Below are positions 9,201 through 42,516 of a stretch of DNA of 51,285 bases, in pieces. How positions within the stretch are numbered: the first letter of the stretch is position 1; every line of letters begins with the position of its first letter. A program made the translations under genes and the position numbers. The stretch lies in sequence record PZ445413.1; one strand, written 5' to 3'. Source of the DNA: a phage. The notes under the pieces were generated by a model that saw nothing but the letters and a program-made list of their open reading frames with translations, did no database searches and was not told the DNA's origin.

Positions 9201-9860
9201 ATGCACCTTCCAAACGGTTCACAGATTTTTATTGAAAGCACCCGCGAGGCGGAAAAGCAAGTAACAGCGATCACCAATGCCGAAAATCCAGTAATGAGCA
9301 TTGCGGATACTTCCGGCATCGCCAAAGGTGATATTTTCATTGTAACTATTTCCTCCTGGGGCAAATTGCTTGATCGCGTTCTGCGAGTTAAAGAGGTTAG
9401 CGAAAATACGAGCATCACCGCTGAGGGAATCGACACCACAGATCAAAACGTGTTTCCCGCTGGCGCTACCGCGTCAATCGCTAAAATCAGCGCGTGGACT
9501 GAGATCCCATGCGTCCAAGATCTAGCGCAGGACGGCGGCGAGCAACAGTATTACACTTACCAGTGCTTGTCCGACGACCAGGAGCAGCAGTTACCGACAT
9601 ACAAGAGCGCTGTTTCTCTAACGTATACTTTCGCGCACGAATACGACAACCCGATCTATCCGCTGTTGCGTAAGGCTGATGAATCCGGCGACGTTAAAGC
9701 ATTGCGCATGTACGTTCCGAAAGCAAAAGAGATCCGCGCATGGGCTGGCGTACTCTCGTTTAACGAGATCCCACAGACCGCAGTCAACGAAATGGAAACT
9801 GTTTCCCTTTCTTGCTCGCTGAAAGGTCGCTTTACTTTCTTGCCATCGGCGCAAGGTTAA
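9201..9860 (+). CDS. major tail (tube) protein
   Basis: 219 aa; RBS aaagagga; followed by strong terminator; upstream of chaperone and tape-measure genes. Confidence 0.6.
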   Translation: MHLPNGSQIFIESTREAEKQVTAITNAENPVMSIADTSGIAKGDIFIVTISSWGKLLDRVLRVKEVSENTSITAEGIDTTDQNVFPAGATASIAKISAWTEIPCVQDLAQDGGEQQYYTYQCLSDDQEQQLPTYKSAVSLTYTFAHEYDNPIYPLLRKADESGDVKALRMYVPKAKEIRAWAGVLSFNEIPQTAVNEMETVSLSCSLKGRFTFLPSAQG

Positions 9861-9866
9861 TCACAA

Positions 9867-9888
9867 GGGGCATTGCGCCCCTTTTTTT
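9867..9888 (+). terminator. rho-independent terminator after major tail gene
   Basis: ggggc...gcccc stem followed by 7 T. Confidence 0.65.
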
Positions 9889-9927
9889 ATTGCTGTAGAA
9901 TCACTCTACCAAAATAATCAAACTGGC

Positions 9928-9945
9928 TTTTAACAAAAAATGCTA
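9928..9945 (-). repeat. 20-bp box, inverted orientation within late operon
   Basis: plus strand reads ttttaacaaaaaatgctat, immediately upstream of chaperone RBS. Confidence 0.45.
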
Positions 9946-9961
9946 TTCAGGAGAAATGACA

Positions 9962-10279
9962 ATGGCTAAAATGAAATTAACTCTTGCCCCACTTCCAGAT
10001 TTCAAACTTCCAGTTAAATTCACCATGCCTGATGGTAATGAAGGTTCGATCCTGTTTACCGTTCGACACCTCAAGGCAAAAGAAGTGCAAGCGATGTATG
10101 AATCTGAAAACATTGTTACCGATTCGGAATTCATCATGAAACTTGCTACCGGATGGGATCTGGAGGAGGAATTCAACGAGGAAAACGCAAAAACCCTTGT
10201 GGAGTTTTACCCAGGCGCAGCATTGGCGCTGACTGGTTCCTATCTTTCCGCGCTGGCAGGGCAACGCGTAAAAAACTAA
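9962..10279 (+). CDS. tail assembly chaperone (G-like)
   Basis: RBS aggag 8 nt upstream of ATG 9962; ends at slippery A_AAA_AAC heptamer; immediately upstream of tape measure. Confidence 0.65.
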   Translation: MAKMKLTLAPLPDFKLPVKFTMPDGNEGSILFTVRHLKAKEVQAMYESENIVTDSEFIMKLATGWDLEEEFNEENAKTLVEFYPGAALALTGSYLSALAGQRVKN

Positions 10280-10593
10280 AAAGGGCGGTTCACCTGTTTT
10301 ACCAGAAGCCGCCCACTGATGCAGAATTGGAGGCCGTAGGATTAACCCGCGCAGATTATGAGGGTGAGGAGCCGATGGAGATCATATTTGATGAAAGCAT
10401 GATGCAATCATGGGATATGTTTTGCGCCATGCAAACTCAATGGCGATCCGCTGGCGCTGGTGCTTACGGCTTTGATTACAATGTTTTGCCTATGTTGTTC
10501 AAAATCTATAAAATAGACGATGAAGAAATGGCATTGAATGACTTGCGAATAATGGAAAGCAAAGCGCTTGAAATGATGCACGCAAGCAAATAA
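10270..10593 (+). CDS. tail assembly chaperone -1 frameshift extension (G-T-like)
   Basis: ORF in -1 frame overlapping 3' end of 9962-10279; heptamer A_AAA_AAC at 10270-10276; no independent RBS or start. Confidence 0.55.
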   Translation, partial: KKLKRAVHLFYQKPPTDAELEAVGLTRADYEGEEPMEIIFDESMMQSWDMFCAMQTQWRSAGAGAYGFDYNVLPMLFKIYKIDDEEMALNDLRIMESKALEMMHASK

Positions 10594-10595
10594 CA

Positions 10596-10617
10596 AAGCG
10601 CCTACGGGCGCTTTTTT
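10596..10617 (+). terminator. rho-independent terminator before tape measure gene
   Basis: aagcgcc tacg ggcgctt followed by TTTTTT. Confidence 0.6.
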
Positions 10618-10635: not shown

Positions 10636-13326
10636 ATGGCGGAACAATACGCGGGGCTATCGTTAGGCGTTGACGTTTCACAGGTAAACAACGCCGTAAA
10701 ATCCTTGCAGCAATTCAAACAGGCCAACAATGAAGCAGCAAAAAGCGTTGAGGACTTTGTTGATCAGGAGCAAGTTGCAAAGCAACGAGCCAAAGAGCTT
10801 GCGCAGGAATTAGCAAAACAGCGCCGAGAGTTTCAGAGCATCCAAAATGCAATTGATCCGACAGCGGCAAAAATGGATAAATTGCGCCAGGCATCAAAGC
10901 AACTTGATACCTTATGGAAAAAAGGCATTGTGCCTGATGAAACGTTTTTTCAGTTGGGTGAAATGCTGGAGGCTCAAACAAACAAGTTGGCGGCAAACCG
11001 CAAAGCGTTAACCGAGGAGGGACGCGCAGCGCTTGAGGAGTCAAAGCAGAAAGCAAAGGCGGCGGCTGAGGCACAGAAATTCATTGCGGCTCTTGAGGCT
11101 CAAGCGGCAGCGGCAGGAAAGACACAGGCCGAGCTAACGGAAATGAAAGCGGCGCAACTTGGCGTAAGCGCGCAAGCAGCGCCATTTATCGCGCAGTTGA
11201 GAGCGCAGGAAAAGGAAGTTGAAAAGCTGGGCGTTTCAATGGGGCAATATCGCCAGGCAATGCGAATGCTTCCGGCGCAGATCACAGACGTTGCAACGTC
11301 GCTTGCTGGCGGTATGCCTATCTGGTTAATCGCCATCCAGCAGGGTGGACAGATCAAGGATTCTTTCGGCGGTCTGGTTCCGATGTTTAAGGCGCTGGCG
11401 ACATTCATCACGCCGTTTAACGTTGGCCTTGCGGCGCTGGTTGGCACGTTGGGTTATCTGACTTACAACGCGTACAGTTCCAAAAAGGCGCTAGACGAAG
11501 TATCAAAAACCGTTCAGGATGCAACGGGGCTTTCCGGTGAATTCGCGGAAAAGATTTCTTTAGGTGTCCAAGCGCTGGCTGACGCTTCCGGCAAGAGCGC
11601 AGAGGAGATCGCGAAAGCATACATTACCACGAAAGACAGCGCGCAACAGGCCATTGAAAAACTTGTTAACGTTGGTTATAGCTATGATGAAGCAAAGGCG
11701 AAAGTTGACGAGTACAAAAACGCATCCAGTTTCGTGAGTCTCAACAATGAGATCGCGGATCACATGAACAAAGTGCTACAGCTTGGCGATTCATGGTTGG
11801 AAGTGCTGAAAAAGAAAAAGCAGTACATTTCACCAACTGGCGGCGGTGGCGGCTCCCTGGCTGATGCGGAATTGGGACACATTAACCGAGGTCTTGAGAT
11901 TGCGAAGCAGACTCACGCCGACATTGCAAAGATCGTAAAAGAAAGCAACATTGATTTTGCAAAGCGTGCTGGAGAGATTGACAAAACAAACCTTTCATTA
12001 AACCGCTTGCGTGCGGCACAGGAAGCGCTAAATAAGGCGATTGAAGATGAAAAATATGTTGCTCAATCTTCCGATAAGGAGCTAAAACGCAAGGCGGCTG
12101 AAAACGTTGCTTTACGCCGAAAAGAGCTTGAGGATCTCAAAAAGCTGGAGGAGAAGAAAGGCAAGGCAAAAACGCAAGGCGGAATTGTGAAAAGCCCTAC
12201 CGAGCAACTAGATAAGGAGGTTTATGTTTTAAAGGCTCAATTAGAAATACTTAAAGAACACCGCACCGTTAATGATGTTATTTCACGGCAGCGACTTTCT
12301 TTAATGAGCACAGAGAAGCAGATCCAGATCTTGCAAGAGGCGCAGAGCAAACGCGGCCTAACAGCAGCGGAGAAAAAGTTACTTGCCGAACAGCAAAGCG
12401 TGTTGGAGTTGTCGAAACAAAAAGCCGAGTTAGGCGATCAAATTTTGATTCAGGAGCGCAAAAACAAACTTGAGCAAAATTCCGTCGAATTCATCCGACA
12501 GACAACCGCAGCGATTGAAGAATTGAATCTCAAGCAAAAAGGCATGACAGACGAGCAGATCAGGCGAGAGCTTGAATTGCAGAAAATTAAGGATGATTAC
12601 AAGGCCAAAGGCGGCGGAGAAGATGATCAGACGTTGCAAGATATGCTGGCAAAACAACAAGCGTTTTACGACAAGCAAGACGAGTTGCAAAATGATTGGG
12701 TTGCAGGTGCTAAAAAGGCGTTTGCCGATTATGGCGCTGAGGCAACAAACGTTTATGCGAACATCAACGAAATTGCAACCGCTGGTCTGAATGGTCTGTC
12801 AAGCATGATGACTGATTTTCTTACTACTGGAAAAGCCAGCTTTAAAGACTTTGCAACTAGCATCATTAAAATGATCGTGCAGATGATCGCTAAGATGGCA
12901 ATTTTTAACGCCATATCCGGCGCTATGGGCGGCGCAACGTTCTCGTTTGCTGGATTAGCCAAAGGATTTGCAGGAGGCGGTTACACTGGCGATGGTGGCA
13001 AATATGATCCGGCTGGCGTGGTTCATAAAGGTGAGTTTGTTTTCACCAAAGAGGCAACGCAACGAATCGGAGCCAAAAACCTTTACCGCTTAATGCGTGG
13101 ATATGCAAACGGCGGCAGTGTTGGCGGTTCGTCATACTCTCGCGGCGCGGCGGCTGGCGGTGTTGGATCTCAATTCAATTTCGGTGATATCATGGTTGAC
13201 GTGAACAACGGCAACGATCCAAAAGGGATGGAAACCGGAATCAAGATGATTTTCACGGAAATGATTCAGCGGTCTTGCTCGCAAGGCGGCGAGGTTTATA
13301 ACTTTGTTAATAGTAAGAGGGGGTAA
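10636..13326 (+). CDS. tail tape measure protein
   Basis: 896 aa; long A/E/K/Q-rich coiled-coil regions; hydrophobic segment; Gly-rich C-terminus; position after frameshifted chaperones. Confidence 0.85.
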
Positions 13327-41942: not shown

Positions 41943-42257
41943 TGATGGATTGTGTATAAAACAACCGCTTTGCAGCACCATTGCAAAATCTGAAATGATA
42001 GCCGCATATCGTTGCACATCATGCAAGATAGTGATTGTTGCAGTTTAGACAATAATTAGTGTGAATTTTTACTGATTGTGTGGGGAATGGTGAAACCTGG
42101 TTCGCGAGTGTCAAGTTTTCGCTCTCGCCACGGCGCCTTGTCTCCTCTTGTTCAGGGGTGTTCACAGATTTCTCCGCATTGTTTCCGCGCCGTTTTTCGG
42201 TGTTGAGTAAACAAAATAAACACTATAAATCCTCTATAATACATTGAAATTAAAGTA

Positions 42258-42283
42258 TATTTATTTATATATATCTATTTGTT
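42258..42283. repeat. 26-bp AT-rich repeat, copy 2
   Basis: TATTTATTTATATATATCTATTTGTT identical to 20785-20810; in early divergent control region. Confidence 0.6.
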
Positions 42284-42516
42284 GTTTTTATTGTTCACAC
42301 TGTTTATGGTGGATATGGGATAGTGTCTGGATTGATGTATAGTGATATATGGGTATGCGCTCGCCTGGGTGGGGTGGCTTGTGCGCATCTATATATATTT
42401 AATCCTCCGCAACTCGTTAACAGCGTTAACAGAAAAAAAGACAGCCTGTTTTCAATGACTTAGGCGCTGTTTTGTCTTTTTGTGCGGTTGTAGTCGTCTG
42501 TTAAACAAAATAAACA

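Follow-up and report, generated by a model that had tools for sequence, protein, structure and literature searches.

A predicted −1 ribosomal frameshift on A_AAA_AAC, ahead of the tape measure gene of a T1-like phage, and the chaperone fusion it would produce

Two overlapping reading frames lie just 5' of the tape measure gene in the phage DNA studied here, and a −1 ribosomal frameshift at the end of the first very probably yields the fused tail assembly chaperone GT beside the shorter chaperone G. Such a site is already known and annotated in the T1-like phage family. In this paper, we set out what in the DNA of this phage and its relatives speaks for the slip, which of the competing ways of reading the same letters deserve some credence, and how the site compares with better known cases of −1 frameshifting.

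The window, by which we mean the whole stretch of DNA that was analyzed (51,285 bases, roughly the length of a whole T1-like genome), is, judging by the company its sequence keeps, a T1-like phage of the Drexlerviridae. The region around the frameshift shares 97.8% identity with its closest relative, Escherichia phage vB_EcoS_W011D (Drexlerviridae, Tempevirinae, Changchunvirus), and has matches in 734 phage records, nearly all of them T1-like; the first 25 kb of the window matches the same T1-like group. A 522-aa ORF fills positions 1-1569, its ATG falling on the window's exact first base, and the window is probably a complete genome, rotated to begin at the large terminase gene. For comparison, we gathered 47 related loci, and for codon-level counts we used 32 distinct sequences from the Tempevirinae and Tunavirinae.

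The features with which we are concerned, all on the + strand, are the following.

9201-9860, +: major tail tube protein gene, the 5' neighbor (Pfam Phage_tail_3, E 1.3e-63; phrog_584 major tail protein, E 1.8e-95)
9865-9883, +: terminator-like hairpin, GC-paired and with a T-run after it, 3' of the tail tube gene and 5' of G (scan match)
9949-9953, +: Shine-Dalgarno sequence AGGAG of G, 8 nt before ATG 9962
9962-10279, +: G, the short tail assembly (tape measure) chaperone, 105 aa by standard decoding (Pfam Phage_TAC_4, E 5.7e-35, full length)
9962-10593, +: GT, the predicted 210-aa fusion, 9962-10276 joined to 10276-10593 (joined CDS of the same geometry in Sazh, Solomon, Sin4 and KLPN1)
10270-10276, +: slippery heptamer A_AAA_AAC, in phase, consisting of the last two sense codons of G and the A that precedes them
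10276-10593, +: T segment, the −1 frame extension of 105 codons plus stop and C-terminal half of the predicted GT (Pfam DUF1799, E 1.4e-12; phrog_17368 positions 109-210; third-position variability)
10277-10279, +: stop codon TAA of G, adjoining the heptamer (TGA in two relatives)
10283-10314, +: predicted hairpin and candidate frameshift stimulator, 6 nt after the heptamer, with an 8-bp GC-rich lower stem (GGGCGGUU/AGCCGCCC) and a 3-bp upper stem
10595-10614, +: terminator-like hairpin and T-run, after the T segment and before the tape measure gene (scan match)
10636-13326, +: tape measure protein gene, the 3' neighbor (Pfam TMP_2, E 9e-37, and Tape_meas_lam_C, E 1e-23; phrog_24, E 5e-196)

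Beyond the tape measure gene follow lambda-like minor tail genes M/L/K/I/J. The start of G seems straightforward: a ribosome binding site is annotated at the place of its AGGAG in Sazh, and the other in-frame ATG of the ORF, at 9956, is an unlikely start because it stands just 2 nt from that AGGAG. The end of G is where the interest lies. It reads ...GGG CAA CGC GTA AAA AAC TAA AAA GGG CGG TTC ACC..., and in it A_AAA_AAC keeps the X_XXY_YYZ phase, its first A being the third base of the Val codon. Over 10108-10279 reading is open in frames 0 and −1 alike, A_AAA_AAC is the sole in-phase heptamer in that overlap, and the −1 frame stays open from 10108 to a TAA stop at 10591-10593.

Much of this had been anticipated. 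The original prediction, which was made from this DNA and its reading frames, placed an in-phase A_AAA_AAC at 10270-10276 in ORF 9962-10279, as can be read directly, and had the −1 frame open to 10593, as we confirm. Two of its details need correcting. The ORF was said to end two codons after the heptamer; it is the heptamer itself that holds the last two sense codons, with the stop adjoining it. The junction of the fusion was given as QRVKN-KLKRAVH, which has one K too many: the predicted product would read ...QRVKN-LKRAVH... after a tandem slip, or ...QRVKK-LKRAVH... if the Lys-tRNA slipped before Asn was decoded.

How much should one make of a run of A's and a C? By itself, nothing at all, because the window has 17 copies of AAAAAAC where shuffled sequences give 25.7 +/- 4.9 (that is, fewer than expected), and so the occurrence of the heptamer is uninformative. 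What is above chance, as far as comparison among relatives can tell, is the heptamer's phase, its position and its invariance amid synonymous sites that drift freely. Together with the adjoining TAA or TGA, it is identical in all good-quality relatives from the Tempevirinae, Tunavirinae, Wilsonroadvirus and Vilniusvirus as well as in Solomon, and it is kept down to 41% identity in G; Sin4 is the lone exception in the main set of good-quality relatives, and AHP42 and KLPN1, like Sin4, bear a tetramer. Among the 32 distinct sequences, Lys is AAA in 32, Asn is AAC in 32, and the codon before them ends in A (GTA or GCA) in 32, amid Leu, Ala and Gly codons just 5' of the site that each appear as 4-5 synonyms.

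Comparison also narrows down where a shared slip could take place. In some relatives the −1 frame opens just 28 nt ahead of the G stop, so any shift site common to them must be confined to that stretch. The other sites that we considered within the overlap are in-phase tetramers only, all of them weak (AAAC at 10108 and 10183, AAAA at 10189 and CCCA at 10210), and we rejected them because every one lies upstream of the 28 nt common to all relatives. One seeming exception also fell away: in locus L038 (IMGVR_UViG_2706796530_000001, 1501-2150) the T segment seemingly occupies another frame, and both frames there are broken by several homopolymer deletions. These deletions of single bases, including A5 for A6 at the slippery site, look like a sequencing artefact.

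The protein itself seems to change frame at the same place. Upstream of the site, mean column entropy at codon positions 1/2/3 of frame 0 is 0.57/0.45/1.45; immediately downstream, by codon position in frame −1, it is 0.36/0.33/1.07. In other words, the variability that marks third positions leaves frame 0 for frame −1 at the heptamer, and purifying selection on the protein therefore changes frame there. The −1 peptide, LKRAVYLFYQKPP, follows the pattern LKRAV(Y/H)L.YQKPPTD in relatives and is conserved from codon 1. The geometry of the site and its conservation are matters of observation, and so is the protein-coding nature of the −1 segment from the site onward.

Profiles of known proteins tell a similar story. 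G matches Phage_TAC_4 (PF08748) with 120.7 bits (Pfam gathering cut-off 21.1), the −1 segment matches DUF1799 (PF08809) with 48.1 bits (cut-off 26), and in a Pfam search at E <= 0.01 neither matches any further family. PHROG 17368, a profile of 213 positions, covers G with its positions 1-107 and then, in the same order, the −1 segment with 109-210, and because the one profile spans both halves, fused proteins of the GT geometry must already be in the databases. A sequence search of the PDB detected no solved structure; Rfam, a tRNA scan and NCBIfam returned nothing relevant, and neither did a literature search on DUF1799.

Could the downstream ORF not simply be a gene of its own, starting at TTG 10327, at ATG 10375 or at ATG 10399/10402, possibly by reinitiation after the stop at 10277? 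Automatic annotation has drawn it so, as a separate short ORF, in W011D (from TTG 10327), Shfl1, Sd1, AHP42 and HazelMika, and in this window a GAGGAG (10366-10371) stands before ATG 10375. However, from the G stop to 10375 there run 33 codons that show conservation of the protein, their third positions drifting in the −1 frame, which is not expected of untranslated sequence and so weighs against a separate gene; the DUF1799 match, too, begins ahead of the candidate starts, at residue 22 of the segment. Because the conserved coding signal lies upstream of the candidate starts, independent initiation cannot explain it. Nor do the starts hold still from phage to phage. The codon at 10375 encodes Pro or Glu in all of the 31 remaining sequences of the 32, W011D included (CCA), and Glu or Thr (the latter in Sin4) in two relatives of the Webervirus group; TTG 10327 varies as TTA or CTT; the ORFs that have been called separately start at differing places between records; and ahead of codon 34 of the −1 segment the relatives have no Met, Val or Leu start that is conserved.

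We consider a separate gene highly improbable. The −1 frame had been predicted to have neither a start nor a ribosome binding site of its own, and this stands in so far as none is conserved among relatives; it gives way at one point, the in-frame ATG 10375 behind GAGGAG in the present window. That ATG, which is specific to this window, might allow minor internal initiation of a free T fragment of 72 aa in this phage.

Returning to the frameshift, we infer the slip itself, its rate, the part played by the hairpin and the functions of the two proteins, as follows. Most ribosomes translating G would stop at TAA 10277 and release G, with its 105 aa. A small share, probably a few percent, would slip back one base on A_AAA_AAC at 10270-10276, the Lys-tRNA re-pairing from AAA 10271-10273 to AAA 10270-10272, with or without the Asn-tRNA moving from AAC to AAA. 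Having slipped, they would bypass the stop and read the −1 frame to 10593, making the 210-aa GT. The hairpin at 10283-10314, 6 nt downstream, would probably raise the rate at which they slip. To judge by lambda, G may coat the tape measure protein together with the G part of GT, the T part (DUF1799) may recruit the tail tube protein, and a fixed, low ratio of GT to G would support tail assembly, with neither protein expected in the virion.

There is precedent for slipping on these letters, since the A6C motif is that of the proven −1 frameshift of IS1 insAB' in Escherichia coli, where the rate is ~1.6-2% (PMC12903888; also PMC4066793). In E. coli, A_AAA_AAC is a weaker heptamer than A_AAA_AAG (PMC4066793; PMC5009743), and for that reason the slip rate in the phage may be very low; a weak motif suits a low GT:G ratio.

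Which tRNAs would do the slipping is a finer question. The same frameshift could arise if the Lys-tRNA alone slipped on the tetramer A_AAA (10270-10273) before Asn was decoded, in which case one would expect the junction ...VKK-LKR... and little influence from the C of the heptamer. Some relatives have just such an arrangement: Rogunavirus AHP42 (L045, 715-760) reads GCA AAG GTC TAA, with the tetramer A_AAG at the same codon, and the Webervirus phages Sin4 (L043) and KLPN1 (L047) read GCA AAA GTT TAA, with the tetramer A_AAA at that codon. These phages have a tetramer only, the next codon (GTC or GTT) being unable to re-pair, and the fusion residue after Lys would be Gly or Ser in these genera instead of Asn or Lys. 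Bacterial ribosomes, moreover, tolerate the re-pairing of AAC to AAA poorly, and the tetramers A_AAG and A_AAA are shift-prone in E. coli (Sharma et al., PMC4066793). However, the 32 distinct sequences all have AAC and not once AAT, which suggests selection on the seventh base or on the Asn codon and speaks for a part played by the Asn-tRNA, and IS1 employs the full A6C motif (PMC12903888). We think it rather unlikely that the Lys-tRNA acts alone in this phage. Across the family as a whole, the A_AAR tetramers of the sister genera imply that the common core is a slip of the Lys-tRNA on A_AAR at the penultimate codon.

One might also blame the polymerase. That is, RNA polymerase, not the ribosome, might stutter on the run of six A's and put one extra A into the mRNA. 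The site is, after all, a homopolymeric A run, and an A7 transcript would encode ...VKK-LKR... in a product of the same length as the ribosomal one. However, E. coli RNA polymerase is known to slip usefully on runs of about 8-9 or more A's, and six is fewer than that. The two-frame arrangement is kept with only A4 in Sin4 and KLPN1 and only A3 in AHP42, and runs of 3-4 A's in sister genera tell against a shared mechanism of transcriptional slippage; an invariant C and a motif kept in phase are, besides, marks of slipping by the ribosome. We give stuttering almost no credence and hold to the ribosomal frameshift.

What, then, of the hairpin? A canonical −1 frameshift signal joins a heptamer to a downstream structure across a spacer of 5-9 nt, and the spacer here is 6 nt. 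Folded in a 54-nt context, it has a minimum free energy of −17.6 kcal/mol, with a z of −2.66 against shuffled sequences. As a further control, we made 500 synonymous recodings of the same peptide with the phage's own codon usage, and the native window sequence is more stable than 500 of 500 (z −3.6); the hairpins of 12 of the 17 relatives tested likewise lie beyond their recodings, with z from −2.8 to −4.5. The search for covariation by RNAalifold and pair counting found 1 compensatory cell in 187 and a covariation term of ~0. The arms of the hairpin encode the conserved R-A-V and K-P-P, and it is for this reason that synonymous recoding is the better control.

The hairpin is absent from the clade of loci L009 and L011 and weak in L006, L023, Solomon and Sin4. 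Since some relatives have lost it or have it only in weak form, it cannot be essential across the family, and we regard it, on the strength of these folding calculations, as a plausible stimulator of the frameshift that is not universal in the family. One may go further and suppose that selection has kept it as a genuine stimulator, one that brings the weak A_AAA_AAC up to the rate that tail assembly needs, and that the genera of the Drexlerviridae have tuned G:GT by swapping motifs at one fixed codon (A_AAA_AAC, A_AAG or A_AAA) and by keeping or losing the hairpin. This we offer tentatively, as a possibility that we would put a little short of an even chance; should it be true, these phages would offer a natural series in which to study the setting of a frameshift rate. 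As for a stimulator on the upstream side, of the Shine-Dalgarno kind found in dnaX, the one candidate was AGGG at 10258-10261, 8 nt before the heptamer, and it was rejected: it falls on a Gly codon that reads GGG, GGT, GGA or GGC in relatives.

Some other elements of the window deserve mention on their own account. The two terminator-like hairpins, at 9865-9883 and 10595-10614, flank the G/GT unit on both sides; terminators are annotated at the place equivalent to the first in Sazh, Sin4 and AHP42 and at that equivalent to the second in Sazh, Solomon, Sin4 and AHP42, and abundant terminators are typical of T1-like phages, according to the literature. If these terminators are partial, transcript levels would step down from tube to chaperone to tape measure. 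There is also a dispersed, asymmetric repeat of ~20-22 nt, ATAGCAC-N5-TGTTAAAA, present in ~19 copies, mostly intergenic, which corresponds to the 22-bp repeat described in Stevie and T1. Behind several of the copies come a GC-rich hairpin and a −10-like CATAAT or TATAGT, and the copy at 9927-9948 stands directly 5' of the ribosome binding site of G.

Repeat copies in one orientation: 9927-9948, 6176, 20639, 36248, 38416, 39153, 40441, 41563, 41923
Repeat copies in the other orientation: 1565, 29191, 31698, 32861, 43685, 44242, 45537, 46530, 47532, 48710

A very AT-rich sequence of 43 nt, AAATAAGAGTTTATTTATTTATATATATCTATTTG..., occurs in two copies that are 88% identical (20774-20816 and 42247-42289), between gene blocks, and one of them sits where the direction of transcription changes.

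It is mainly for annotation that the frameshift matters. The correct product is the 210-aa joined CDS. Current records differ in their treatment of it. The curated GenBank records of Sazh, Solomon, Sin4 and KLPN1 give the frameshift product as a joined CDS, the genome papers of Stevie and U136B mention it, and G is labeled a tape measure chaperone in W011D, Sazh and Solomon. Many records in the family, W011D, Shfl1, Sd1, AHP42 and HazelMika among them, still split the pair into two genes, with an arbitrary start for the T segment. In Klebsiella phage KLB26 (L003, PP556865.1, 1562-2190), the chaperone pair has become a misc_feature with the remark "unable to determine intron boundaries"; this intron label is a mis-annotation of the frameshift. 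Apart from such housekeeping, the family, with its heptamers and tetramers at a single codon and its hairpin present or absent, makes up a modest comparative set on how low-rate frameshifts are tuned in enterobacteria.

The nearest systems are, of course, the T1-like ones. The pairs of the Citrobacter phages Sazh and Stevie, the Klebsiella phages Solomon, Sin4 and KLPN1 and the E. coli phage U136B consist of homologous genes in the same order, with 41-99% identity in G, and Sazh and Solomon have A_AAA_AAC-TAA, the 210-aa fusion geometry and the flanking terminators all as we find them here. What sets this genome apart is a His in place of Tyr at T-segment residue 6, together with the Met codon at 10375; apart from the tetramer A_AAA of Sin4 and KLPN1, there is otherwise no difference of substance. 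The pair is likewise homologous to T1 gp40/gp39 and to TLS tfmA and tfmS/tfmB.

There is lambda, too, whose G/GT frameshift was reportedly described by Levin, Hendrix and Casjens in 1993; chaperone pairs of the G/GT type with a programmed frameshift are said to have been treated by Xu, Hendrix and Duda in 2004, 2013 and 2014. The proteins of the present pair belong to Phage_TAC_4 and DUF1799, Pfam families other than those of lambda gpG and gpT, which we take to be Phage_TAC_2 and Phage_tail_T. Because Pfam matches Phage_TAC_4 and DUF1799 only, the pair would work like lambda G/GT but is no sequence-level member of its families. The likeness lies elsewhere: in overlapping ORFs between the major tail and tape measure genes, the second in −1 and without its own start, and in a low-rate shift near the end of the first ORF that gives a fusion in fixed ratio (PMC5009743), a shift that is here predicted. 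The marks of a G/GT-type pair are found here in the placement of the ORFs, a −1 overlap without a conserved start, an in-phase slippery site and conservation in diverged relatives. The conserved G/G-T arrangement upstream of the tape measure gene, which the original prediction had proposed, is thus supported by gene order, Pfam and PHROG matches, conservation of the site and annotated relatives. The slippery sites differ, G_GGA_AAG in lambda and A_AAA_AAC with an adjoining stop here, and a hairpin is predicted for the phage. In lambda, the ratio of G to GT is roughly 30:1, of the same order as the rate on the A6C motif of IS1 (PMC5009743).

IS1 insA/insB' shares the letters themselves: towards its end, the upstream ORF carries the identical A_AAA_AAC, and the −1 shift there relies on the same host translation machinery, working at ~1.6-2% (PMC12903888). 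Its biology is unrelated, being a matter of transposase dosage, and it has no established stimulator (PMC4066793), in contrast to the hairpin predicted here. The E. coli dnaX gene, with its gamma and tau products, resembles the phage site in its −1 shift, its A-rich heptamer, its use of Lys-tRNA and its downstream hairpin stimulator (a candidate only, in the phage). However, dnaX shifts on A_AAA_AAG, is helped by a Shine-Dalgarno-like stimulator upstream, slips at a high rate and makes a shorter product by doing so, whereas in our phage the corresponding AGGG is not conserved and the predicted frameshift would make the longer protein.
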